A DNA stretch of 64,000 nucleotides from an uncultured Actinomycetes bacterium (GCA_963830835.1 CAWHNJ010000022.1:67434-131433); one strand, 5' to 3'. Positions 19,755 through 32,938 are shown, counted from the stretch's first letter. The notes: a model not told the origin generated them from the sequence alone. Made by a program: numbers and translations.

Positions 19755-19773
19755 CGTTGCTACCCTGGCCGGC

Positions 19774-20921
19774 GTGCGTCTCCGGAGCGTCGTCGCGCTC
19801 ACCGTCACGCTCGCGGCCGTGGTCGCCACGGGCGCCGGCGCGTTCAACATCGACACCGACCAGCCTCCGCCGCCGGGAGTCGTCGGCACACCGTACTCCT
19901 TCGTCTTCCAGCCCCAGGACGGCGCGCCGCCCTATGGGTTCTGGATCGACGCCGGCGAGATCCCGCCGGGCCTCAAGATGGAGGGCGACGGGACGCTGCA
20001 CGGGACGCCGACCGCCCCGGGCACGTTCAGCTTCACCGTCGGAGGCTCACAGTGCTGCGGTCCCGATTCGCAGATGGGATTCACCCTCACCATTCGCGAC
20101 AAGCTCGCGATCACGACCGCGTCGCTCCCGAGCGCACTGGTGGGAGCGCCATACGCGGCGCCGCTTTCGGTGGTCGGCAACAGCGGCCTGGGCATGGGCT
20201 GGAAGGTGAGTGCGGGCTCGCTCCCAGCGGGCCTGGCCATCGCGCCTGACGGTACGCCTGCGGACACGAAGATCTCAGGCACGCCGACGACAGTCGGCAC
20301 CTCGACGTTCACCGTCAAGGTGGGTGATACCGACGGCTTCCTGCCCGACCGTTCGACGACGCGGCAGTACACGCTCGCCGTCGTGGCGCCGTTCGCGGTC
20401 ACGGCCGCTGCAAGCAAGCTCCCAACCGGCATCGTCGGCAAGGTGTACAGAGGGACGCCGGCGACCGCTGCAGGCGGCCTCTCCCCCTACACGTGGGCCG
20501 TGTCGGGCGGGACCCTGCCGGCCGGGCTCACGCTCGACCCTGCGACGGGTGCGCTCGTCGGAAGGCCGACGACCGCGGGCTCGTACGCGCTGTCGATCCG
20601 GGCAACGGACGCGGACGGCCGCATGGGCACCGCAGATGTAGCGATCACGATTGCCGCGCGCTGGACCTCGTCACCACTCGCCTTCGCACTGCGACAGTCG
20701 GCGACCCGTATAGAGCAACGCTGCGCGCGCAGGGCGGTCAGGCGCCGCGGACGTTCACGATCACCCGCGGGAAGCTCCCGGGCAAGCTGAAGCTCAACGC
20801 GAGGTCTGGCGTCATCAGCGGGACGCCCCAGACAGCCGGCACGTTCCGCTTCACGGTGACGGCGAGGGACGCACTCGGCCAGCGCTCGTCCGAGCGGCTG
20901 TCGCTGACCGTTCACGCGTAG
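19774..20921 (+). CDS. Secreted protein with about 5 'putative Ig' (He_PIG/cadherin-like) repeats, frameshift near 20658
   Basis: Signal peptide VRLRSVVALTVTLAAVVATGAGA. Repeats of the form GxPY...GG.PY.W....G.LP.GL.L....G...GTPT..G...FTV. The last repeat is in the ORF 20493..20921 frame. Confidence 0.7.
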
Positions 20922-20991
20922 TCGCGTCGGGATAGATTCAGCCCGCCCATCCGAATAGCGCTTCGACACCCGCCGACGCACGTGGACTCTT

Positions 20992-21174
20992 GTGCAGTCC
21001 GTCCTCGTAACCGAGTCGCTGACGAACAAGGAGTACAACTCATCGGTGCTGCTGGACGGCACGAAGCTGTTCCGCATCGCGGTGCCGAAGGGAACGACGC
21101 TGCGCGCGGTCTTGCCGCTCCAGGCCGCCAAACCGTGCTACCTCGCCGGCTACAGCAAGCTCGTGCGCGCCTGA
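20992..21174 (+). pseudogene. Orphan C-terminal fragment (60 aa) of the tandem secreted-paralog family
   Basis: VQSVLVTESLTNKEYNSSVLLDGTKLFRIAVPKGTTLRAVLPLQAAKPCYLAGYSKLVRA matches only the last ~55 aa of the paralogs at 22.4-28.0 kb. There is no signal peptide or N-terminal domain, and local GC is lower. Confidence 0.5.
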
Positions 21175-21180
21175 GGGTCC

Positions 21181-21200
21181 ATATCAGATTAATCTGATAT
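21181..21200. promoter_or_regulatory. Perfect 20-bp AT-rich palindrome ATATCAGATTAATCTGATAT, a candidate toxin-antitoxin operator
   Basis: It lies 12 bp upstream of the antitoxin ATG (21213). It is the only AT-rich perfect palindrome in the neighbourhood. Confidence 0.6.
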
Positions 21201-21212
21201 GTTTGGCCACCG

Positions 21213-21470
21213 ATGGCTCGCCTGACCGCGACGGAAGTGGCCCGTCGCTTCTCGAGATCCTGAACCGGGTTGCGGACGGGGAGGAGATCGAGGTGAGCGC
21301 GGGGGCGCCCCGTGGCCGTCATCACCCCGCCGAGACGGCGCCTGCTGTCCGCGGAGCGGTTCCGTGAGCTGATGGCGTCCGCGCCACCCGTGGACGACGA
21401 CTTCGTCACCGACGTACGTCGGATCCGCCGTGAGGCTGGGATAGCCGAGGAGCGCGCCTGGCCGTCCTGA
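21213..21470 (+). pseudogene. Phd/YefM-like antitoxin with at least two frameshifts
   Basis: MARLTATEVARRFS(E)ILNRVADGEEIEV...PVAVITPPRRRLLSAERFRELMASAPPVDDDFVTDVRRIRREAGIAEERAWPS-stop can be reconstructed only by changing frame near 21255 and near 21300. Confidence 0.55.
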
Positions 21471-21859
21471 TCGACACGGACCTCCTGATCGAGTGGGAGC
21501 GGAGGGAGGACGCTGATGCACTCGAAGCCGTCGTCGGCCCTGTGGAGAGAGCGATCAGCGTCGTGACGGTCAGCGAGCTGCTCCACGGCGTGCACCGTTC
21601 TACGGGCGCACGCCGCGCACGCCGGCGCGCGTTCGTGGAGCACCTGCTGGCGGGCATCGAGGCGCTGCCGATCACGGAGGCGATCGCCCGAGTTCATGCC
21701 GAGGCCTGGGCCGACCTCAGCCGACGCGGCGAAGCCATCGGCGCTCACGACCTCTGGATTGCAGCCACCGCCCTGGCGCACGGCTTCGCCGTCGCGACAC
21801 GCAATCGCAACGATTTCGCGCGCGTTCGTGGGTTACGCGTCCTGGCGCCGGCTCGATAG
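21458..21859 (+). CDS. vapC: PIN-domain toxin (VapC-like), start codon unclear
   Basis: LAVLIDTDLLIEWERRE...ISVVTVSELLHGVH...ITEAIARVHAEAWADLSRRGEAIGAHDLWIAATALAHGFAVATRNRNDF. The ORF track begins only at 21542, because no ATG/GTG/TTG precedes the LIDTD motif. Confidence 0.75.
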   Translation: MAVLIDTDLLIEWERREDADALEAVVGPVERAISVVTVSELLHGVHRSTGARRARRRAFVEHLLAGIEALPITEAIARVHAEAWADLSRRGEAIGAHDLWIAATALAHGFAVATRNRNDFARVRGLRVLAPAR

Positions 21860-21884
21860 CTGGACGTTCGAGAGCAGCCGGACG

Positions 21885-21912
21885 GGAACCTTCCGGCTCG
21901 CATTCGCGACTA
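21885..21912 (+). promoter_or_regulatory. Candidate ECF-type promoter GGAAC-N16/17-CGAC, close enough to give a near-leaderless sigma transcript
   Basis: GGAAC at 21885-89 and CGAC at 21907-10, 6 nt before the GTG at 21917. This is pattern resemblance only. Confidence 0.3.
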
Positions 21913-21916
21913 TGTA

Positions 21917-22458
21917 GTGATGGCGAACCCGCAACCCGCGTCCGAACGACGTGTCGAGCGAGACTTCGAGGTCGAGGACGCCGAGCTCGTGCGGCGGGCG
22001 CAGCTGGGTAGCGTCGCGGCCTTCGAGGCGCTGGTCGTACGGCACGGGCCGCGGCTGCAGCGGTACCTGAGAGTCGAGCTGCGGCACGAGAGCGACGCGC
22101 ACGACGCGTTGCAGGAAGCCCTGACGGCCGCCTGGCGTGGGCTCCCACGCTCCGCCGCGCCGACCGCTTCTGGCCATGGCTTGCCGGCATCGCGTCCAAC
22201 AAGGCTGCCGACGTCCACCGCCGCCGAACGCGAACAGCCGACGCGGAGAGCGCCGGCCGAGACGATGACAACGACCTGCTGCTCGAGACGAGGGAGGCGC
22301 TCTCCGCGCTCCCGCCGCAGTACCGCGAGGTGCTGCTGCTCCGCTACCTGCTCGGGCTGAGCGAGGAGGAAGCGGCGGCGGCGCTCGGCGTCCGCGTCGG
22401 CACGATCAAGTCGAGGAGCTCGCGGGCGCGGCGTGCCTTGCTGGAGGAGCTGGGATGA
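21917..22458 (+). CDS. ECF (group 4) sigma-70 family factor, frameshift near 22146
   Basis: Region 2: ELVRRAQLGSVAAFEALVVRHGPRLQRYL...DAHDALQEALTAAWRGLP. The second frame gives RFWPWLAGIASNKAADVHRRR...LPPQYREVLLLRYLLGLSEEEAAAALGVRVGTIKSRSSRARRALLEEL (region 4). Confidence 0.85.
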
Positions 22459-23730
22459 GGCGCAACCGGCAGGAACAGGAGCACGTCATCCGTCAGCTGC
22501 TCGCCCGTCTCGCCGACGAAGCGGGCGACCCGACGGAGGTCGAGCTGCGCAAGGCCGCGCGGCTCGCGGCCGCCGAAGGACGAAGCCCGCAGCAGCGCCC
22601 GGCCGCGGCCACGCGACCCTGGCGTCCGCTCCGCGTGCGCTGGGCTGCCGGCGGCGCAGCGGCGCTGCTCCTCGCCACGGCCCTCGGCTTCGGCGTCGCC
22701 TCCTGGCTCACTCCGACGAGCAGCGCGCGAACGGACGTCGAGGGCTTCGGCTTCCTGCCCGCGACGGGCTGGACGGTGATCCAGGTCGGGCTCCCCGGCT
22801 CCGCCGAGTCGACGCGCATGGTGGCTGCCAACGTCCCTATCTCGCCTGGCGATCCCAGTCGCGGCCAGCCACCAGCGCTTCACGCATTTCCCCCCGTGGA
22901 CAATCGTTATCGACGCGACACTGAAGGCGCGCGGAGAGCCGGCCCGGGACCTCGCGTTCCCGGTGCGTAGCCTGCCGCTGAGCCTGGCGGACGCGAGGCC
23001 GGTCACCGTGACAGGCCAGCCGACGCTGGAGTACGTCCTCCGCGCGGGAGTCAACGGCTACAACGTCGACGCGAGCGTCACCTTCGCTACCGAGCCCACG
23101 GACGAGATGTTCGGCAAGGCCGAGGAGCAGATCGCGCGACTCGTCGTCGCTCCGGCAGCGATCACGATCTCCGTCCGGCCGACGATCTTCGGACGGCAAG
23201 GCCCGCTCGTCGTATCGGGATCGGTGACGAGCGGGAAGGCCGACGAGAAGGTGACGCTCCAGTTCAGGCAGTGCGGCCTCGTCCCGGCCCAGTTCCGCGA
23301 CCTCACCGAGGTGACGACGCACGAGGGCGGTGGCTGGTCGATCGAGACCGGCGTCCTCGCGAACGGCGTCTTTCGAGCGCTCTCCGGCAGCGACGTGTCG
23401 AACGAGGTGCAAGTGCAGAAGAGGGTGGACGTGCGCCTCGCGCCGGCACCGCCCCGGCGGTTCGTCGTCAACGTCGTCGAGCGGTTCCAGTTCTGGCGGA
23501 AGCAGGTGCTCATCCAGCGCTTCCACCGCGGACAGGGCAAGTGGCTGCTCGTAAAGAAGCTCCGGCTCGTGAACACGAACGCGGCCCCGGGGTCTTCGTT
23601 CGTCTGGTCGACGACCGACGAGTTCGCCGTCGACGTCGCCAAGGGCACGACCATCAGGGCCGTCCTGCCGCTCGCCCAGGCCAAGCCCTGCCACATCGGC
23701 GGCTACAGCAACCTCCTGGTGACGAAGTGA
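22455..23730 (+). CDS. Putative membrane anti-sigma factor whose extracytoplasmic C-terminus is a copy of the secreted paralog family (P1); frameshift in the C-run at 22891-95
   Basis: ATGA overlap with the sigma gene. One TM segment (AAGGAAALLLATALGFGVASWL). The C-terminal 200 aa ITISVRPTIFGRQGPLVVSGSVTSGKADEKVTLQFRQCG...LIQRFHRGQGKWLLV...VAKGTTIRAVLPLAQAKPCHIGGYSNLLVTK align with P2-P6. Confidence 0.6.
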
Positions 23731-24374
23731 GGCGCTCGGCCTGGATCGCAGGGGCGTTCGTCGCAGCCGCGCTCAGCCTGGGCTTCCGGGCCGCCGCTGA
23801 CGAAACGATCTCGTGGTGGGTCCGTCCGCTGATCGTCCGCTGGGACGAGCTCGTCACGGCCAGCGGGACGATCGGGAGCGGCCAGGCGGGCCAGCTGGTG
23901 ACGATCCAGCAACGCGTCTGCGACCAGCAGACGTGGCGAGACGTCGGAGAGGCAACTACCACGGACGGTGGCAACTGGTCGGTCGACTTCCTCACCAGGA
24001 TCAGCGGGCTCCTGCGTGCCACCTCCGGCGGCGCGACGACCGACCCGGTGCAACTCCAGCAGCGGCCGTACGTCTTCTTCTCACAACGCCCTCCAGGGCG
24101 GTTCCGGGCGGGCGTTCAGGCGCAGCGGCAGTACTGGCACAGGAGGATGCGGATCGACCGGTTCGACCGCGCGCGCGGTGCGTGGGTGACGGTGAAGCGC
24201 GTGCTGATCACCAAGACCGAAGGAGACGGGGGCGGCGGCATGTCGGACATCGCGAGCACGACCGACCTCTTCCGAATCAACGTCCCGAAGGGCACGAACC
24301 TGAGAGCCGTCCTGCCCACAGAGGTCGGGAGGCCGTGCTACGTCGCAGGCTTCAGCGCTATCGTCCGCCGTTGA
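23727..24374 (+). CDS. Secreted paralog P2 (unrecognised two-domain family)
   Basis: GTGA overlap with the upstream gene. Signal VRRSAWIAGAFVAAALSLGFRAAA, then ...TIQQRVCDQQTWRD...RIDRFDRARGAWVTV...NVPKGTNLRAVLPTEVGRPCYVAGFSAIVRR. Frame intact. Confidence 0.7.
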   Translation: MRRSAWIAGAFVAAALSLGFRAAADETISWWVRPLIVRWDELVTASGTIGSGQAGQLVTIQQRVCDQQTWRDVGEATTTDGGNWSVDFLTRISGLLRATSGGATTDPVQLQQRPYVFFSQRPPGRFRAGVQAQRQYWHRRMRIDRFDRARGAWVTVKRVLITKTEGDGGGGMSDIASTTDLFRINVPKGTNLRAVLPTEVGRPCYVAGFSAIVRR

Positions 24375-24448
24375 GCAACATCCCCTCGTCACGAAGTGAC
24401 GCGCTCGACACGGGCTATCGGTCTGCTGGAAAGCGCGTCTAACCAGTC

Positions 24449-25087
24449 GTGAGACGCGGGCTCTTCACCGTGGCCGCTGTTGCCGCCGGCCTCGGGCTCG
24501 GCCTCGGCGGCACGGCGGCCGAGACGATCTCGATCAGCGCCCGGCCGACGATCACCGGTGCCGGGGACCGTGTCGTCGTGACCGGCTCGATCGGCAGCGG
24601 ACGCGCCGACGTCGACGTCACGCTCGAGGCGAAGTACTGCGACGAGCCGGCATGGCGGGAGCTTTCCGCGACGCACACCGACCAGGGAGGCACGTGGTAC
24701 CTCGAATACGTGCCGCTGATCACGCAGCTGATCCGGGCGAAGGGCGCGGGCGCCACGAGCACCGAGGTCAAGGTGCAGACGCGGCCCACTGTTTCCCTCG
24801 GCCAGAGGCCACCCGGCATGTTCTTCGTCAACGTCAACTCCCAGCGGGGGTTCTGGCGCAAGCGCGTCTCCCTGCAGCGTTTCGACCGCGAGAAGCGCGT
24901 CTGGCGCGAGATCCGCAAGATCCAGCTCACGGAGACCGGCGCCCCACCGGGCGTCGGCTGGGTGTGGACCGGCAGCGAGAAGGTCCGCGTCCAGGTCCCC
25001 AAGGGAACTACCCTGCGCGCCGTGCTTCCGCTCTCGCAGACGAGGCCGTGCTACCTCGCCGGCTACAGCAACCTTCTGCGACGATGA
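24449..25087 (+). CDS. Secreted paralog P3
   Basis: ORF 24449..25087, intact. Signal MRRGLFTVAAVAAGLGLGLGGTAA, then ISISARPTITGAGDRVVVTGSIGSGRADVDVTLEAKYC...SLQRFDREKRVWREI...QVPKGTTLRAVLPLSQTRPCYLAGYSNLLRR. Confidence 0.75.
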   Translation: MRRGLFTVAAVAAGLGLGLGGTAAETISISARPTITGAGDRVVVTGSIGSGRADVDVTLEAKYCDEPAWRELSATHTDQGGTWYLEYVPLITQLIRAKGAGATSTEVKVQTRPTVSLGQRPPGMFFVNVNSQRGFWRKRVSLQRFDREKRVWREIRKIQLTETGAPPGVGWVWTGSEKVRVQVPKGTTLRAVLPLSQTRPCYLAGYSNLLRR

Positions 25088-25713
25088 GGCGCGCTCGCCC
25101 TCACCGTCGTCGTCGTATTCGCGACCGCAGGCCTCGCCGCTGCCGCCGTCGTCGCGGACAGCGTGACGCTGCAGCTGCGCGCGAACGTCCTTCGCTCGAA
25201 CGAGTACAGCGTGGGTGTCGTGGGCGACATCTCGAGCGGCGCAGAGGGCGAGTACGTGGTCGTGAAAGGCAAGGAGTGCGGCATCCCGGGCGCATTCTTC
25301 CGCGGCCTCGGCGGCGGTACGACTCTCGCGGGGGGCCGGTACGAGGCGTCCGTCCTCGTCCGCACGAAGACGACGCTCCGCGCCGAGTGGAAGGGGACGA
25401 CGAGCCTGCCGGTGGTCGTCAACAAGCGCGCGTACATCACGCTCACGAAGGAGGAGGACGGCTTCCGCGTAGGCGTAGCAAGCGAGACGCACAACGTCGA
25501 CGGGAAGAAGGCGACCATCGAGCGCCTCACGTCCACGGGTTGGAGGAAGCTCCAGACGGTCGTCCTGAAGGCGCAGCCGGTTACGTCCAGTACGCGGAGA
25601 AGAAGAAGCTCCGCTTCCAGGTGCCGAAGGGGACGACGATCCGCGCGGTGCTCCCGCGCTCGCAGGCTGGCGCCTGCTACCTGGCCGGATACAGCAAGCT
25701 GGTGCGAACATGA
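25084..25713 (+). pseudogene. Secreted paralog P4 with two frameshifts (near 25097 and 25585)
   Basis: ATGA overlap with P3. Reconstructed as MRRALALTVVVVFATAGLAAAAVVADSVTLQL...VVVKGKECG...IERLTSTGWRKLQTVVLKAQ-GYVQYAEKKKLRFQVPKGTTIRAVLPRSQAGACYLAGYSKLVRT. Confidence 0.65.
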
Positions 25714-26333
25714 GGTCGCGTTCGGCGCTCTGCTGTCCTTCTAGCTGTCGGGGCGACGGCAGCTACGGCGCTCGCCGCGGCTGCTGACACCGTGACCATC
25801 GCCGCCCACCCGGGAAATCGATCCGCTGGCCGGCGATCGCGTCGCTGGCGGGACAGGTCTCGAAGGGCAAGGCAGGCGAGATCGTCACGCTCGAGGCCAA
25901 GCAGTGCCCATCGCAAGTGTTCTCGGAGATCGGCCGGACTCGCACGACTGCGGGCGGCGCCTGGTCCGCGGAAGCCGGAGTGCAGACGAAGACCACGATA
26001 CGCGCCACGTGGCAAGGCTCCCGCAGCCGCCACAGTGGTCGTCCTCGTTCGCCCACACCTCGTGCTCGGCCAAGTCTCGAGCCGTCTCTTTCGGGCATAC
26101 CTCACGCTCGGAAGGTTTGCGAACGGCAAGCAGCTCGTGCTCCAGCGCTTCGGCGGCGAGGATCGTGGCTGGACCGCCGTCAAGGCGTTCGTCTTCCGAA
26201 GCCCGTCGACCGGCTGGCCGCAGATGACCTTCACGGCAAGCGTGCCGAAGGGAACGCTGCTGCGGTTGACGCTGCCGCGCGCCAGGCACAACCGTGCTAC
26301 CTAGCCGGATACAGCAACCTGCTACAGACGTAG
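25710..26333 (+). pseudogene. Secreted paralog P5 with at least four frameshifts
   Basis: ATGA overlap with P4. Pieces in two frames: TVTIAAHPG / EIDPLAGDRVALAGQVSKGKAGEIVTLEAKQCPSQ...TTIRATWQGSRS / ATVVVLVRPHLVL...LVLQRFGGEDRGWTAVKAF...SVPKGTLLRLTLPRA / QAQPCYLAGYSNLLQT. Confidence 0.6.
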
Positions 26334-26343
26334 AGGAGGCGAC

Positions 26344-27349
26344 GTGACGGAAGTCGGAGGGAACCTCGGGCAGGCGGCGGAGATCGCCGGGCGACTGCTC
26401 GCGAACATCGAGACGGTCGTCCACGGCAAGACGGACGAGGTGCGGCTCGTGCTCGCGGCGCTCGTCTGCGACGGCCACGTCCTGCTCGAGGACGTGCCGG
26501 GCACGGCGAAGACCGTGCTCGCCCGCGCCATCGCCGGCTCGGTGGAGGGCGCGTCCTTCGCGCGCATCCAGTGCACGCCCGACCTCCAGCCGACCGACGT
26601 CACCGGCCTGTCCGTCTTCAACCAGCGCGACCGCGACTTCGAGTTCCGGCCCGGGCCAGTGTTCGCGAACGTCCTGCTCGTCGACGAGATCAACCGTGCG
26701 ATGCCGAAGACGCAGTCGGCGCTGCTCGAGGCGATGGCTGAGTACCAGGCGACGATCGACGGCGTCACCCGCGAGCTGCCGAAGCCGTTCCTCGTGCTCG
26801 CCACCGAGAACCCGATCGAGCAGGAGGGGACGTTCCCGCTGCCGGAGGCTCAGCTCGACCGCTTCCTGCTCCGTACCGCGCTCGGCTACCCGGGCGAGGA
26901 GGAGGAGCTGCGGATCGTCGAGGAGCAGGTGGTGCGGCATCCGCTCAGCGGGCTACAGCCCGTGCTGTCGCTCGACGAGGTCAACACGCTGCGCGAAGCG
27001 ACCCACAGCGTGTACATCGATCCGCTGCTGCGGCGCTGGGCGATCCGGCTCGTGCGCGCGACGCGGGAGGCCGAGGGCGTGGCGATCGGCGCCTCTGTCC
27101 GCGGCTCGCTCGCCCTCGAGCGCTCGGCGCGCGCATGGGCGCTCCTCTCCGGCCGCGAGTTCGTGACGCCGGTCGACATCGAGCGGCTCTTCCTCCCTGT
27201 CGTCATGCACCGGATCGTGTTCACGCCGAGCTACGTCGCCACAGCACGCGAGATCGGCTGGCGGGAGGCGGCGGACGGGTTCCAGCGTCAGTGTCTCGAG
27301 ATCGCGCCGCCAGCCCGGAGTCGAGCTCGAGCAGGCCGTTTCGGTATGA
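26344..27349 (+). CDS. moxR: MoxR-family AAA+ ATPase, frameshift near 27310 just before its stop
   Basis: GHVLLEDVPGTAKTVLARAIA (Walker A), VLLVDEINRAMPKTQSALLEAM (Walker B), ATENPIEQEGTFPLPEAQLDRF. The real end GVELEQAVSV-stop overlaps the next ATG (ATGA 27346-49). An AGGAGG SD precedes the GTG at 26344. Confidence 0.9.
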
Positions 27350-28022
27350 AGTTGCTCGCGCTGGCGGGGCTCGGGCTGGCGCTCGCAGGCGGCGTCGCCG
27401 CAGCTTCGAGCCAGGCCGACCCGGTGACGCTGTCCATGCGCCAGTACACGAACTCGAGCAAATGGCGGGTCCACGTGTGGTACGGCCAGGTGGCGACCGG
27501 CGCAGCGGGCGAGGACGTCGAGGTGCTGGGGCAGGCGTGCCTCACGAAGGGCTTCCGCCTCTACATGGCGACGAAGACCGTTCCCGGAGGCGGCTACGAG
27601 GCCGAGAGCGTGTCTACGCAAATCCCCTACCAGCATCGGTGCAGGTCGACTCCGGCACGACGTTCCGGGCGCGCTGGCGAGACCAGCTCAGCAACACGAT
27701 CCTCCACAAGACTCCGATACTCGGCTTCTACCCGGTGAAGATCCCCAAGCGGCGAGCGTGGAAGGTGGTCGTCAACCCGGCGCCGCTCTACATGAAGCTG
27801 GGCGGCAAGCCCGTCATCCTGCAGCGCTTCCGTGCCGGCAAGTGGGAGCGCTTCAAGAGCGCGCCACTCGTCCTCAAGGCGAACTACGACTACGGCGGCG
27901 CGACGAACTACGAGGCGGTCTTCGAGACTCCCACGCGCGGCATGCGGCTTCGCGCCATCGTGCCCGCCAAGACCGTTGCGCCGTGCTACCTCGGCAAGAC
28001 GAGCCCGTCGTGGCGCACGTGA
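27346..28022 (+). CDS. Secreted paralog P6 (divergent member), frameshift near 27630
   Basis: MKLLALAGLGLALAGGVAAASS...EDVEVLGQACL...ASVQVDSGTTFRARWRD...VILQRFRAGKWERFKS...RGMRLRAIVPAKTVAPCYLGKTSPSWRT. Confidence 0.6.
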
Positions 28023-28608
28023 GGCTCCTTTTGTCGGCGTCGCTGCGGCCTCGCGGTCGCGGCCGGGATCGCCAGCGCAGCCTCGCAGCCCGCGTCGCGG
28101 ATCGTCGACCGCACGATGCTCTGCAAGACCTGGGGCTCCGGCTACCCCGACCCACTCCGCACCATGGCGGTCGTCGGCGTGCCCAACCAGGCGCAGGCCA
28201 CGAACGGGCCACAGGGATCGCCGCGGTTCGTCGTGGCCCAGATCGCCCTGGGGGTGAACGGCCAGGATCAGGTGGTCGTCAGCCGCACCGCGTGTGCTCC
28301 CACGAGCAAGCGCCTCCAGCTGTCTGCAAAAGGGCTGCGCAGCGGCGTGACCGACTTCGGAAACAAGTGGAAGTGCCCGGTGCCCGCCTCGGTGCTGATC
28401 CGTGTCCGCGCCGCCTTCGCGGGGCCGGTGACTCTCAAGCCGGCGCCGGACGCGAGCTACCTCCTGATCGCCACGGGACGTATCTCGAGCGGCTCGCTGG
28501 CCATCAAGACGAAGGACGGGACACCGCCTCGCCTTCGCGTCCGTCGACAACCGCGGGAAGGGCGCCATCTTCGTCGCCAGGCCCCGCTGCCAGCGGAACC
28601 GTTTTTGA
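28019..28608 (+). pseudogene. Hypothetical secreted Cys-containing protein with two frameshifts (near 28045 and 28535)
   Basis: GTGA overlap with P6 and TTGA overlap with DUF58. Core MLCKTWGSGYPDPLRTMAVVGVPNQ...VSRTACAPTSKRLQL...NKWKCPVPASVLIRVRAAF...LAFASVDNRGKGAIFVARPRCQRNRF. No known family recognised. Confidence 0.45.
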
Positions 28609-29507
28609 CGGCGACGACCTTCCCACTGATCCCGCGGCGGCGGGTGCTCGGCTTGCCGTTCGGAGCGCTGCACAGCGCGCGCCGCGGTCTCGGCTCTGAC
28701 GTCGCCGGCTCCCGCCCCTACCAGCCGGGGGACGACATCGACCGCATCGACTGGTACGCGTCGGCGCGGCTGTCCCTCGCGCGCGGCTCGGACGAGTTCG
28801 TCGTCCGCGAGCATTTCGCCGAGGAGGCGCCGCGCGTCGTCTCGCTCGTCGACCGCCGGCCGTCGATGTCGATCTTCCCCGAGGGCTGGCCCTGGCTGCA
28901 GAAGCCGGAGGCGATCCGCGGCGCGGTGCGGCTCATCTCCGACAGCGCCATCGCCGCCCGCGGCCTGCTCGGCTACCTCGACGAAGGCGAAGGCGAGCCG
29001 TTCTGGCACCCGCCGCGGAGCCAACACCTGCTCGGGGACGCCGACCTCGAGCGGCCGTTCGAGGCGCCTGCCGACACGCTCACGCGCAGCCTGCACCATC
29101 TCGTCGCGCAGCGCCGCGACCTGCCCGCAGGCACGTTCGTCTTCGTCATCTCAGACTTCCTCGAGCGGCCGAGCCGCGACGACTGGCTGCTCGTGCTCGA
29201 ACGGCGGTTCGAGATCGTGCCGGTGATCGTGCAAGACCTGCTCTGGGAGCAGAGCTTCCCCGACGTGAGCGGCGCGGCGGTGCCGTTCGCGGACGCCGCC
29301 ACCGGCCGCGTCTCACTGGCGGCGCTACGCGAGCACGAGGCGGCCGAGCGGCGCGAGCAGAACGAGACGCGCTTCCGCGACCTCGTCCGCGAGTTCCACG
29401 GGCTCGCGATGGATCCCGTCGTCGTCTCGTCGCACGAGCACCGCGACGTCGTCTTCTCGTTCCTCTCCTGGGCCGACCAGCGGCTGCTGACGAGGGGACG
29501 GCCGTGA
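28605..29507 (+). CDS. DUF58 (vWA-like, MoxR-associated) protein
   Basis: TTG start. GSDVAGSRPYQPGDDIDRIDWYASARL is the DUF58 hallmark (RxYxxGDxxRxIDW). The rest of ORF 28116..29507 is intact. Confidence 0.85.
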   Translation: MTATTFPLIPRRRVLGLPFGALHSARRGLGSDVAGSRPYQPGDDIDRIDWYASARLSLARGSDEFVVREHFAEEAPRVVSLVDRRPSMSIFPEGWPWLQKPEAIRGAVRLISDSAIAARGLLGYLDEGEGEPFWHPPRSQHLLGDADLERPFEAPADTLTRSLHHLVAQRRDLPAGTFVFVISDFLERPSRDDWLLVLERRFEIVPVIVQDLLWEQSFPDVSGAAVPFADAATGRVSLAALREHEAAERREQNETRFRDLVREFHGLAMDPVVVSSHEHRDVVFSFLSWADQRLLTRGRP

Positions 29508-30427
29508 GGCGCGCCGCCCTGCTTGCGCTGCTCGCCGCCGTAGCGCTCGCCGCGGGCTGCGGCGGAGGTGGTGAGGACATCGCGGCGCTGCCTCCCGGAA
29601 GCTTCGTCTCCGCGAGCGGAGAGCTCGGGCCGCCCATCCATCTCTTCGGCGACACGATCGGCGCAGACGTCAGCGTCGTCGTCGACAAGACGAAGCTCGA
29701 CCCGGGACGGGTCAGCCTGAAGACGTTCTTCGAGCCGTACGAGCCGATCGAGGAGATGGAGGTCGCTCGCCGCGAGGCAGGGAATCTGGCGGAGATTCGC
29801 TACCGGCCCGTCTCCGCTGCCTCGAGCGTGCCTGCATCACCTCGACCCTCGGGACGATCCAGAATCCGGCGGAGTGCGCCGCGCACGTTCCGGTTCCAGC
29901 CCGCGCAGGTGCAGTACACCGATCCCGGCGCGGAACAGCCGCGGCTCCTGCGCACGGTCCGGTTCTCGCCGATCGAATCGGTCACGCGCATCAACGCGCA
30001 GGACGTGACGCAGGTCTACGGCTTCCCCTTCCGCGGCAGCTTCACGCCGCTGCCCGCGATCTCGCAGCGCATGTCCGCGACGACGCTCGGCGTCCTCCTG
30101 CTTCTGCTCGCGGCGGCCTTGCTCGTGCTGCCCGTGATCCTGGCCCTCCGCTGGTGGCGCGCACGCAGACAGCCGCCGCCGCCCGAGCCCGAGCCGGAGC
30201 CCACGCCGCTCGAGCGCGCGATCGCACTCGTCGAGTGGTCGCTGGCGAGTGAGAACGGAGCCGAGCGGCGGGCGGCGCTCGACGCGCTCGCCACGGAGCT
30301 GGACGTCGTTGAGTCGAACGGCCTGGCCGACGAGACACGCGTTGCGGCCTGGTCGCCGCCCTCGCCCTCGACCGACGAGGCAGAGCGAATCCTCACCCTC
30401 GTGAAGGAGCGGCATGGCGACGCTTGA
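29504..30427 (+). CDS. Lipoprotein with a C-terminal TM anchor (occupies the BatD-like position)
   Basis: Lipobox LALAAGCGGG. TM segment TTLGVLLLLLAAALLVLPVILAL followed by RWWRARRQPPPPEPEPEP. There may be hidden compensating frameshifts at 29808-29885. Confidence 0.6.
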   Translation: MRRAALLALLAAVALAAGCGGGGEDIAALPPGSFVSASGELGPPIHLFGDTIGADVSVVVDKTKLDPGRVSLKTFFEPYEPIEEMEVARREAGNLAEIRYRPVSAASSVPASPRPSGRSRIRRSAPRTFRFQPAQVQYTDPGAEQPRLLRTVRFSPIESVTRINAQDVTQVYGFPFRGSFTPLPAISQRMSATTLGVLLLLLAAALLVLPVILALRWWRARRQPPPPEPEPEPTPLERAIALVEWSLASENGAERRAALDALATELDVVESNGLADETRVAAWSPPSPSTDEAERILTLVKERHGDA

Positions 30428-31232
30428 GCGCGCGTTCCCGTCGGCCGAGACTGCGCCGCTGCGCCGCGTCGTGCGGCGGACGACGCTCATTCGCATCGCA
30501 CTCGCCCTCGCGCTCGTGGGCGCGCTGGCGCTCGCCTTCCTCGCCGCCCGCGACTCGGACGTGAGGCACGCGCCGCTCGTGCCCTCGGGGACGACCGGCG
30601 TCGTCGTGCTCGATCTCTCGGCGAGCGTCTACGAGGCTGCCTTCGGCTCGACGCTGCAGAAGATGGCGCGGCAGGGCGAGCGCGCCGGCCTCGTCGTCTT
30701 CTCGGACTCGGCCTACGAGGTGCTGCCGCCGGGGACACCCGGCCGCGAGCTGCTGCCCTTCCTCCGCTTCTTCCGCCCCGACCCGAACAGCACGACCGGC
30801 AGCTTCCCACCCAATCCGTGGCAGGACTTCCGCGCCGGCACGCGCATCTCGGCGGGCCTCGCCGAAGCGCACGCGTCGCTCGTCTACGCCGGCGCGAAGA
30901 AGGGCTCGATCCTCATCGTCTCCGACCTGGAGATCCTCCCTGACGAGGTGGCGCGGCTCGGCCACGTGATCGCCGACGTGCGCCGGGACGGCATCGAAGT
31001 CCGCATCCTCCCCGTCAATCCCAGCGCCGAGAAGCGGCGCTCATGGAGGAGATCCTCGGCAAGGGAGCGTTCCTCAAGGAGAAGGCGGAGGAGGCAGCGC
31101 CGAAGGAAGCGCCGGAGAAGGAGAGCCTGCGGCTGGCGGCGCCCTGGCTGTTCATGCTCGCCGCCGGCCTCGTCGTGGTGCTGCTCGCCACCAACGAGCG
31201 GCTGCTCGGGACGTCTGGAGGTGCGCCGATGA
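30414..31232 (+). pseudogene. Membrane-anchored vWA-domain protein (BatA/BatB-like) with two frameshifts (near 31035 and 31205)
   Basis: N-terminal TM segment, then GVVVLDLSASV (DxSxS MIDAS) ...GLVVFSDSA...ILIVSDLE. The middle section is in the ORF 31043 frame (MEEILGKGAFL...WLFMLAAGLVVVLLA). It ends RLEVRR-stop, overlapping the next ATG. Confidence 0.7.
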
Positions 31233-31859
31233 GGTGGCGGCGCTGGCTCGTTCCGGCCTTGGCCGTGCTCTGCGTGCCCGTGGCGGTCGTGCTCGCGCTC
31301 TTCGCCGTCGACGTGCTGCGTGTCGGCGACTCCGTCACCGAGGACGACGTCCGCTTCAAGCAAGGCCAACACTGCAGGCAGGGCTCTTCGACGACCCCGG
31401 TTTCCTGCCCGGTCACATCGCCGCGAAGGCGGTCGGTCTCGAGGACGACCTGCGCTATCGCCGCGCGGTCTGGCTCTATGCCCGCGCCGACCCGAGCAAC
31501 ACGACGGTGTACCTCTCGCCCGCCCAGGAGGCGTTGCGGGCGAGCCTGGAGCCGAAGCTCATCGATGCCAGCCGGGCGGAGACCGATCCCCGACGGCGTT
31601 CGCGGCTGCTCAACCTCTTGGGCATCGTCGCGATGAGCCGCTACGCCGTCGACCCCGGCGACCGCTCCAACACCGTTCGTGCGGCCATCGACTCGTTCAC
31701 GAACGCGATCAACATGGACCCGACCAACGTCGACGCGAAGTTCAACCTCGAGATCGTCCTGCGCGACTTCTTCCACCAGGTCGCGCCCGGCGTCTCCCCG
31801 GACCGCGGCCGGCTGGGCGGGAACGTCGCCGGCGTCGGCCGCGACGGCAGCGGTACTGA
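31229..31859 (+). pseudogene. Membrane-anchored helical protein (occupies the BatC/TPR-like position) with frameshifts near 31370 and 31855
   Basis: MRWRRWLVPALAVLCVPVAVVLALFAV...; second frame LQAGLFDDPGFLPG...AIDSFTNAINMDPTNVDAKFNLEIVLRD (TPR-like). A TGATG junction joins it to the next gene. Confidence 0.5.
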
Positions 31860-32748
31860 TGGACCTGACGTTCCTCACGCCGATGGCGGCGATCTTCGCC
31901 GTGTCGGCGTTGCTGCCGCTCGGCATCTACTGGTTTCGCGAGCGGCGCGCCTCCAAGATCCGGAGTGCGCTCGGGCTGGAAGAGCCGTCGTGGCGCTCCC
32001 GTGCGCCGCTTGTGGCGGCAGTGGCCGCAGTGCCACTGCTGCTCGGAGTCGCGGCCGCACAGCCGGTGCTCGGCACCGAGCGCTCCGTGCCCGAGCGGAC
32101 GGACGCCGAGGCATTCTTCGTCATGGACACGTCGCGCTCGATGCTGGCAGCGGACGGCCCCGAAGCCGCCACACGCTTTGACCGTGCGGTCGAGGTCGCC
32201 TCGGAGATCCACGACCGGATCCCGCAGGTGCGTTCCGGCATCGTGTCGATGACCGACCGCCTACTGCCCCATGCCCTGCCGACCACCGACCGGCGGTGTT
32301 CGAGACGACGCTCCGGCGGTCGATCGGCGTCGAGCTGCCGCCGCCCGCGTTCACCTACTCCACCTATGCGACGTACTACGACATCCTCGCCGGGATCCCG
32401 CAGCGCAAGTTCTTCTCGCCAGCGGCGAAGAAGCGGCTGCTCGTCGTGATGACCGACGGCGAGTCGCGGCCGTTCGGTTCCCAGCTCGGCGCGGCGTTTC
32501 CCGGCAAGCCTCCGATCGAGACCGTCCTCGTCCGCTTCGGGAACGCCGACGAGCGCATCTACACGACGGGCGAGGCAGAGGGCTACGTGCCCGCCAAGAA
32601 CAGCGAGCAGACGATCGCGCGCGTGGCCGACCTGATGGGCGGCCGCGCGTTCTCCGAGGACGACGTGTCCGCGGCCGGCGACGCCGTCGCCGAGATCGTC
32701 GGCGAGGGAGCGACGAACGACAGGAAGATCCCGGGCGCGCGTCGGTAG
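31859..32748 (+). CDS. vWA-domain membrane protein (BatA-like), frameshift near 32290
   Basis: MDLTFLTPMAAIFAVSALLPLGIYWF...AFFVMDTSRSMLA (DxSxS)...; second frame LLVVMTDGESRPF... Confidence 0.75.
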
Positions 32749-32938
32749 GCGGGCTCATGCCCTGGGTGCCGTCGGTGACGCTCGGCCGTGGCGCAGGAAT
32801 CGCGGCCTGAGCGAGAACCGTCCTTCCGGCGTGCCGCTCGCGCTTCCTCCTGTGGCGAGAGGACACCGCGTCCCGCTCGCGTAGCCCACGAACGCGACGA
32901 CAAGCCCCGTCGCGGCGGCCACACTGCTGCGATCCTCG

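Follow-up and report, generated by a model that had tools for sequence, protein, structure and literature searches.

A conserved Bat-like MoxR-DUF58-vWA operon of uncultured Actinomycetota, headed by an ECF sigma factor and a putative anti-sigma factor that carries an unnamed tandem-Ig domain

Operons of the MoxR-DUF58-BatA/BatB-TPR kind are well known (PMC3557215, PMC5700661; spirochaete versions included) and encode on one strand an AAA_3-type MoxR ATPase, a DUF58 protein and two membrane-anchored vWA proteins with the DxSxS motif, with a small helical transmembrane (TM) protein between the two. MoxR and DUF58 genes also occur together in the Bifidobacterium PFNA cluster, pkb2-fn3-MoxR-DUF58-tgm (PMC8430577, PMC6803598), and in the mycobacterial region ripA-ripB-moxR1-Rv1480(DUF58)-Rv1481(vWA) (PMC4810496), while a MoxR-vWA core is found in the Esr pathway (PMC13622651) and in the MoxR-vWA-beta-propeller ternary systems. 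Extracytoplasmic function (ECF) sigma factors with single-pass anti-sigma factors (PMC7826278) form a separate body of knowledge, and in the main text of the ECF classification the sole link to vWA is ECF289, whose anti-sigma factor is fused to a vWA domain (PMC7826278). In the literature searched, which for that classification means its main text, we found no ECF group described as lying in a MoxR/DUF58 context. Here we describe an operon that joins the two, located on the + strand at 21.9-32.8 kb of a 64-kb stretch of DNA (hereafter the window; CAWHNJ010000022.1, G+C ~70%) from an uncultured soil actinobacterium of Gaiellales type, a monoderm. The operon is real and conserved, is of Bat-like kind, has an unusual regulatory layout, encodes a domain family without a name, and is known from uncultured lineages only.

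A genome scan gave nine related loci from Gaiellaceae or uncultured Actinomycetes metagenome-assembled genomes (MAGs). Four of them (L001-L004) show synteny with the window and a nucleotide identity of 78-90%, and one of these, L002, has every gene unbroken and was used as the intact reference, its 14 proteins serving for mapping. When these 14 proteins were placed on the window by tblastn, they matched exactly the gene order that a first-pass annotation had read from the DNA: ECF sigma, anti-sigma::P1, P2-P5, MoxR, P6, a Cys protein, DUF58, a lipoprotein-TM protein, vWA1, a TPR-like TM protein and vWA2, where P1 to P6 are members of the unnamed family. Pfam likewise recovered the domains that had been called, namely Sigma70_r2, Sigma70_r4_2, AAA_3 (1.5e-59), DUF58 and VWA_2. 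The gene content and order therefore stand as listed, while the genes are not readable as written open reading frames (ORFs), which are disrupted by ~20 frame-breaking indels discussed below. The features are as follows.

21885..21910, + strand: predicted ECF-type promoter, GGAACCTT, spacer, CGCGAC, then TATGTAGTG-ATG
21920..22458, + strand: ECF sigma factor, with Sigma70_r2 and Sigma70_r4_2 (7.7e-18) in different frames; break near 22135-22147
22455..23730, + strand: putative anti-sigma::P1, placed by tblastn to the 426-aa L002 protein; break near 22852-22895
23161-23727, + strand: P1 tandem-Ig domain, the C-terminus of the putative anti-sigma
23727..24374, + strand: P2 (paralog D), 215 aa, intact, with a third-position GC (GC3) coding signature; 41% identical to paralog E; ortholog L010_a
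24449..25087, + strand: P3 (paralog E), 212 aa, intact, the family reference; 86% identical between window and L002
25084..25713, + strand: P4 (paralog F), ATG overlapping the P3 stop; breaks near 25095 and 25577
25720..26333, + strand: P5 (paralog G), rebuilt from four frame pieces across three breaks
26344..27349, + strand: MoxR AAA+ protein, AAA_3 1.5e-59, AAA_lid_2 8.3e-18; 94% identical to L002 MoxR
27346..28022, + strand: P6, the post-MoxR copy, ATG overlapping the true MoxR stop; break near 27610-27639
28019..28608, + strand: Cys protein, secreted, its L002 ortholog containing four Cys; breaks near 28019-28083 and at 28524
28605..29507, + strand: DUF58 protein, intact; PF01882 at 7.5e-12 in the window and 6.9e-14 in L002
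29504..30427, + strand: probable lipoprotein-TM protein, with an outer domain, one TM segment and a cytoplasmic tail of ~95 aa
30414..31232, + strand: vWA1, with a TM segment, an outward vWA domain (DLSAS) and a C-terminal TM segment; indels at 31039 and 31208
31229..31859, + strand: TPR-like TM protein with an outer helical domain; breaks at 31357 and 31854
31859..32810 (end approximate), + strand: vWA2, with two N-terminal TM segments, an outward vWA domain (DTSRS) and a C-terminal TM segment

The proposal that these genes form one operon is well supported by their junctions. In L002, 9 of the 12 junctions are 4-nt overlaps of start and stop codons (ATGA, GTGA or TTGA), the others consisting of one 14-nt overlap and two gaps of 9-10 nt, one of which contains GGAGG, and a hairpin lies 3' of the last stop codon. 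Third-position GC analysis of the window showed + strand coding to be unbroken from ~21.45 to 32.75 kb with the frame changing often, and we found neither a sigma-70-like promoter nor an excess of terminator-like sites in the operon region. Judged by its gene junctions, the unit is a single translationally coupled operon. Its end had been placed at 32748, which did not hold, since the stop codon there is created by a private insertion of 5 nt and the true end of vWA2 lies farther 3'.

The GGAAC..CGAC motif reported at 21885-21910 is present and conserved, and has the GGAAC-like -35 and CGAC-like -10 elements of an ECF autoregulatory promoter. In an extended form, GGAAC(C/T)TT-N-CGCGAC-TATGTAGTG-ATG, it lies 5' of the sigma gene in ten loci (the window, L001-L006 and L010-L012), being kept in L005 and L006 despite ~57% sigma identity, and kept though the upstream neighbor varies among a kinase gene, a He_PIG gene, a P gene and VapC. 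Each locus has the strict motif a single time, and so does the 64-kb window as a whole; the loose GGAAC..CGAC motif is not distinctive, with 17 matches vs 8.9 expected. This predicted promoter probably makes the sigma factor autoregulated, and because TATGTAGTG-ATG directly follows it, the transcript is probably near-leaderless.

The downstream part of the operon is Bat-like in architecture, as had been proposed. The MoxR protein is of the classical AAA_3 type, with PF07726 covering positions 1-131 of 131, PF17863 at 8.3e-18, a Walker A motif GTAKT and a Walker B motif DEINR. The DUF58 protein scores 45.3 and 52 bits (cutoff 23.4) and lies 3' of MoxR in all long loci, and 3' of both are two TM-anchored vWA proteins with the metal ion-dependent adhesion site (MIDAS) motif, the combination that marks a Bat-type module. 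DxSxS was found in both vWA proteins, as claimed, and in 13/13 orthologs of vWA1 and 9/10 of vWA2. The Pfam score of vWA1 falls below thresholds (VWA_CoxE, 20.3 bits); vWA2 has a VWA_2 match of 2.2e-12 in L002 and a weak match to PRK13685 (1.3e-07). The protein between them is a TM protein as described, with an outer helical domain; its TPR-like label was supported by sub-threshold PDB TPR matches only (E 0.13-1.8, all within residues 150-180), with no Pfam TPR match. The probable lipoprotein, present in all long loci, has a lipobox-like AAGC/TAGC and four K/R after its TM segment, and matched no family in Pfam or NCBIfam. The Cys protein had no above-threshold Pfam match, and scans of the anti-sigma, Cys, lipoprotein-TM and TPR-like proteins against NCBIfam, Pfam and PADLOC returned nothing usable.

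Compared with the described Bat operons, the window operon shares the AAA_3 MoxR, the DUF58 protein, the two membrane-anchored DxSxS proteins, the small helical TM protein between them and the single coding strand. It differs in being headed by a dedicated ECF sigma/anti-sigma pair, in adding the tandem-Ig family, the Cys protein and the lipoprotein-TM protein, in residing in a monoderm Gaiellales-type actinobacterium, in failing the BatB equivalog model (NF047506, 15.2 bits vs a cutoff of 350, with the BatA_N domain not reported) and in that its TPR-like label rests on sub-threshold matches. Bat-type operons are widespread, and what sets this one apart is that the module is wired, in a conserved manner, to its own sigma/anti-sigma pair.

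The other described systems are more distant. The PFNA cluster is also actinobacterial and also combines a signal transducer and a beta-sandwich surface protein with MoxR and DUF58, but it has a Ser/Thr kinase, FN3 and a transglutaminase, with no paralog array and no two vWA proteins; only MoxR and DUF58 are shared, and no kinase or transglutaminase gene occurs in any surveyed locus. The mycobacterial moxR1 region resembles the window operon in placing MoxR, DUF58 and a TM-vWA protein beside genes for exported envelope proteins, whereas its exported partner is a Tat-dependent peptidoglycan hydrolase, and it has one vWA protein, no ECF pair and no P family. The Esr pathway and the ternary systems share with it the MoxR-vWA core, variable extracellular proteins, a transcriptional output and occurrence in Actinomycetota; unlike them, the window operon is without beta-propeller, kinase, phosphatase or FHA components, has DUF58 and an ECF sigma output, and has no PADLOC match.

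The parallel with Esr raises the idea of an anti-phage or conflict role, in which the operon would be a system of the MoxR-vWA ternary type and the diversified surface P paralogs would sense invaders. A bpMoxR match in Pfam could be taken in the same direction, although it is weak (3e-07, 30 bits vs 200 for AAA_3). Since none of the 8 core proteins has a PADLOC match, no beta-propeller, effector or toxin domain is present, no propeller or effector gene occurs in the surveyed neighborhoods, DUF58 with two TM-vWA proteins is the classical Bat architecture, and the P orthologs are rather well conserved (86% between window and L002 for P3), we regard a defense role as extremely unlikely.

The family that we call P could not be assigned to any named domain, in agreement with the first-pass annotation: 59 members together with long forms had no match in Pfam, and NCBIfam and PADLOC gave none either. 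All six copies that had been counted were found, and an intact paralog used as a tblastn probe detected the five further copies of the region plus a seventh half-copy upstream, at 20959-21174. Free P proteins are ~210 aa long with two Cys. The AlphaFold2 (AF2) model of P3 (pLDDT 91.2) consists of two tandem Ig-like sandwiches, and a Foldseek search against the PDB returned generic two-Ig proteins only (TM-score ~0.4, ~10% identity); Factor XIII and transglutaminase matches were disregarded at scores of 0.14-0.2. In the 59-member alignment the invariant residues are G46, C64, G81, R96, W152, P200, C201, G205 and S207, and the C-terminal PCYLAGYS tail is nearly invariant. Reading P5 through three frames recovers a signal peptide, the conserved Cys and the PCYLAGYSNLLQT tail. 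The P signal peptides are short and Sec-like, a strict Tat-like motif being present in 2/176, and no lipobox was found. Weak matches of 3/59 members to PF20381 (Rv1476) at E 0.07 were treated as probably compositional; by a curious coincidence, the membrane protein for which PF20381 is named has its gene next to ripA-ripB-moxR1 in M. tuberculosis.

For P3 there are 128 close homologs, every one of them without a name and derived from a metagenome or MAG. A profile search of 1.84 billion representative proteins gave 2,500 P matches at E<=1e-3 and 1,011 at E<=1e-10, in architectures that include free proteins of ~210 aa, anti-sigma-like proteins of 405-440 aa with a C-terminal P domain, proteins of ~300-325 aa and multi-P proteins. 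P is thus a sizeable uncharacterised domain family of ~1,000 representative clusters at E<=1e-10. Distant P-like domains (~26% identity) were also seen outside the MoxR context, at L057 848-1747, L058 8-529 and L051 2-436; the L057 case is a cupredoxin::P fusion, and the others adjoin a PD40/PASTA protein or a response regulator and a CAP-domain protein.

The P copies of the window share 18-48% identity with one another. For every copy a positional ortholog exists in both L002 and L010, and the array is therefore old and maintained. The P4 ortholog of L002 is 71-89% identical, P5 clusters with the pre-MoxR copies, and P6 belongs to a separate clade with L002_P6, L004_post and L010_post, being 55% identical to its L002 ortholog.

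In order to see how regularly these elements occur together, as the first-pass annotation had recommended, neighborhoods were surveyed in 55 loci, consisting of L005-L013 and 46 metagenome loci. MoxR lies directly 3' of the last P copy in 33 loci (33/39 informative additional loci), and in 21 loci the sigma gene, the anti-sigma N-terminal part and P are all upstream. Thirteen of the other loci are uninformative, since they break off within the P array or directly behind it, six, with weak or partial matches, are without MoxR, one gave no hits, and in 2/55 anti-sigma::P is followed by a second sigma gene, as in the tandem-pair type of L012 and L052. With the linkage recurring in this way, a chance juxtaposition of these genes was ruled out. 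Tandem sigma/anti-sigma::P pairs ahead of a P array and MoxR were seen at L012 9493-12560 and L052 5520-9183, and probably also occur in L028 and L047.

The number of free P copies per operon varies from 0 to 5 or more, the window lineage having P2-P5 before MoxR and P6 after it. In a minimal form of the operon, found in the divergent Gaiellaceae loci L005, L006, L025-L027, L029, L039 and L045, the genes are sigma, anti-sigma::P, MoxR, DUF58, lipoprotein-TM, vWA1, TPR-like and vWA2, the free P copies, P6 and the Cys protein all being absent. Because minimal operons keep only the fused P, the P domain is primarily the outer domain of the putative anti-sigma factor, and the free copies are lineage-specific additions. 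The free paralogs are most likely, on the evidence of these comparisons, old duplicates of the anti-sigma sensor domain rather than clients of MoxR.

The first-pass annotation had instead suggested that the paralogs are clients or substrates of the MoxR/vWA chaperone-like machinery under envelope-stress-type control; in such a reading MoxR/DUF58 would mature them or aid their export. The tight adjacency of P and MoxR in 33 loci and the translational coupling of P6 to MoxR are in keeping with this, and M. tuberculosis offers a precedent, as its MoxR1 is required for Tat export of RipA (PMC4810496). However, the minimal operons retain MoxR, DUF58 and the vWA proteins with no free paralog to serve. 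The P signal peptides are of Sec type, so that P would be exported unfolded, away from a cytoplasmic MoxR, and extracellular folding is in keeping with the conserved pair of Cys. Moreover, the free copies are diverged positional orthologs and not interchangeable, which fits differentiated envelope components better than equivalent substrates. We therefore consider the client reading unlikely and take the free copies as duplicates of the sensor domain.

The sigma factor itself is an ECF (group 4) protein, with sigma-2 and sigma-4 regions only and, in L002, a TIGR02937 score of 61.9 bits vs a cutoff of 42.9; an equivalog-level match to the L002 sigma was not found. The window copy aligns with residues 1-179 of the L002 sigma, split over two frames. 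In every case the sigma gene is followed by that of a single-pass membrane protein, predicted to be N-in, whose start overlaps the sigma stop codon in an ATGA, as in L002. This protein is laid out as a cytoplasmic two-helix N-terminus, one TM segment, an alpha/beta middle domain and the C-terminal P1, and the AF2 model of a homolog, P0275 (pLDDT 83), places helices at 2-21 and 27-39, the TM segment at 60-83, the middle domain at 97-226 and P at 231-415. For the full anti-sigma model, too, Foldseek against the PDB gave generic Ig tandems only, with no specific structural match for the middle domain. As in described ECF systems with single-pass anti-sigma factors, a two-domain ECF sigma is paired with a membrane protein and a GGAAC-type promoter; what differs is the putative sensor, a tandem-Ig module without a name, of which the operon encodes free paralogs as well.

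MoxR and DUF58 have no TM segment and are thus cytoplasmic. The L002 vWA2 protein is predicted to run as TM segment, cytoplasmic loop, TM segment, outward vWA domain and TM segment, and the TPR-like protein as a TM segment and an outer domain. Both MIDAS vWA domains, the TPR-like protein, the lipoprotein, the Cys protein and all P domains are accordingly predicted to face outward.

From the operon structure, promoter conservation, domain relationships and linkage, which sequence comparison establishes, we propose with moderate confidence that this is an ECF-sigma-driven, translationally coupled operon for an envelope-spanning Bat-like module that is controlled by docking of P1 with feedback. 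The ECF sigma would transcribe the whole operon from its own promoter, and the anti-sigma factor would keep the sigma at the membrane. P1 would dock from outside on the vWA/TPR/lipoprotein complex, at its outer face, or else on a ligand of that complex, and a lost or overloaded P1 contact would release the sigma, leading to transcription of the operon. The free P paralogs may occupy the same sites via their shared PCYLAGYS-containing C-terminal surface, either as subunits or as competitors of P1, and their occupancy could tune or reset the switch. The sharing of one family between the anti-sigma sensor and up to six secreted proteins points to specific partners for the vWA domains, which are predicted to face outward. 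The layout would give the module a defined regulatory input and output, and would turn a vague "envelope integrity" phenotype into testable interactions.

Several points weigh against this proposal. The membrane protein is called an anti-sigma factor for its position, its topology and its coupling to sigma: it has no Pfam or NCBIfam match, including none to an anti-sigma family for its N-terminus, and the L002 protein is without the zinc-binding (ZAS, HxxxCxxC) motif, its sole Cys, C275 and C414, being in the outer P domain. The contact between P domains and vWA ectodomains is likewise deduced, and the P alignment has no invariant acidic residue as an obvious MIDAS ligand. The topology was predicted for the L002 proteins by hydropathy and the positive-inside rule.

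A signal in the opposite direction is also conceivable. The outer vWA/P assembly would sense a cue from the envelope or from outside, and MoxR/DUF58 would use ATP to remodel the anti-sigma factor and free the sigma, so that the Bat-like module stood both upstream and downstream of the sigma, with diverged P proteins as receptors or decoys. MoxR-vWA pairs with variable surface sensors do form a signaling cascade in Actinomycetota (the Esr pathway, PMC13622651), the cytoplasmic segments of the anti-sigma and lipoprotein-TM proteins would be within reach of MoxR/DUF58, and the sigma/anti-sigma::P pair and the MoxR module strictly co-occur. The MoxR here is nevertheless of the classical AAA_3 type with a weak bpMoxR match, and no kinase, FHA or beta-propeller component occurs in the surveyed neighborhoods, so that we see this as a speculative and rather unlikely alternative to P1 docking. 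If true, it would provide a testable function for the long-enigmatic Bat/MoxR-DUF58-vWA operons and a new route of ECF sigma activation independent of regulated proteolysis.

The window copy of the operon differs from L002 in its reading frames. Only P2, P3 and DUF58 are clean ORFs; sigma, anti-sigma, P4, P5, the MoxR 3' end, P6, the Cys protein, the lipoprotein, vWA1, the TPR-like protein and vWA2 are all broken, most L002 proteins map onto the window in two to four frame pieces by tblastn, and Arg-rich out-of-frame tails terminate many candidate ORFs. The breaks of the Cys protein make a false fusion to DUF58, the lipoprotein has compensating indels at 29809 and 29876, the vWA1 indels shift its C-terminal TM segment into another frame, and vWA2 has a break at 32296 and private changes of +5 nt and -16 nt at its 3' end. 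From MoxR to vWA2, a four-way alignment over 6.5 kb showed at least 10 frame-shifting indels private to the window, vs 1-2 per relative, and the total comes to ~20 breaks once those of sigma, anti-sigma, P4 (two), P5 (three) and the vWA2 end are added.

These ~20 breaks are very probably consensus errors of the assembly and not gene decay. We read them as artefact since L002 is intact, sister long-read MAG loci are broken too but at other sites (the L001 copy of the paralog G region is itself broken), window genes outside the operon such as the upstream carbamate-kinase-like gene are also broken, and the substitutions show a third-position bias. The window-private substitutions fall 28/33/74 over codon positions 1/2/3, as in intact relatives, a third-position share of 55% vs 33% expected under neutrality, and the shifted frames still code conserved protein, 55-94% identical to L002. 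A homopolymer explanation fits some sites only, and private-indel counts and the codon-position test were used in its place. It is quite unlikely that the frameshifts are real and the operon of this genome a decaying pseudogene cluster, given the conserved shifted frames, the codon bias and the breaks elsewhere; the observations on that side are the number of private indels compared with the relatives and their patchiness, which would be compatible with a real and recent inactivation, the adjoining stretch at 14.7-18.7 kb, where the 3.1 kb compared with L002 has no indel, the multi-base size of some breaks, including those at the vWA2 end, and the presence of a P remnant and a VapBC insertion just upstream of the operon.

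The apparent fusion of MoxR to P6 was rejected for the same kind of reason. A private 1-nt insertion at ~27310 joins the two falsely in the window, and comparison of the junction across 8 loci gave independent frameshifts in the window and L012 and, in six loci, a MoxR stop codon overlapped by the P6 start codon. Public "MoxR" entries of 555-556 aa (L012 15293-16963, L060 11276-12943) are frameshifted read-throughs into P6 that have been propagated in protein databases. Short frame segments with a coding signal ending before the ORF stop occur elsewhere in the window as well, for example at 2.6-7, 18.8-19.75, 33-35, 38-41.5 and 49.8-51.5 kb; because the breaks are window-wide, if patchy, gene models of the window need frameshift-tolerant handling.

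Upstream of the operon, a secreted protein with He_PIG "putative Ig" repeats (PF05345, 2.4e-30) is encoded at 19756-20925 (+) and is frameshifted near 20630. Its intact ortholog, L004 6201-7430, ends just before the sigma promoter, and L003 has in the same place a full P gene followed by the He_PIG gene. A fusion of He_PIG to a P half-domain was considered and rejected, since the L004 He_PIG ORF stands alone. Relative to L004, the window has an insertion of ~960 bp at 20925-21885 (+), which contains the C-terminal-half P remnant (20959-21174, ending …PCYLAGYSKLVRA*), a frameshifted VapB-like antitoxin gene at ~21200-21440 and a PIN/VapC toxin gene at 21542-21859 (PF01850, 7.9e-14). Farther upstream, at ~10-19.75 kb of the window, synteny with L010-L012 and L060 extends over genes for a thiolase, a 3-hydroxyacyl-CoA dehydrogenase and an acyl-CoA dehydrogenase, to which the same block adds, ahead of the operon, a CAP-domain secreted protein and the AA_kinase (carbamate-kinase-like) gene.

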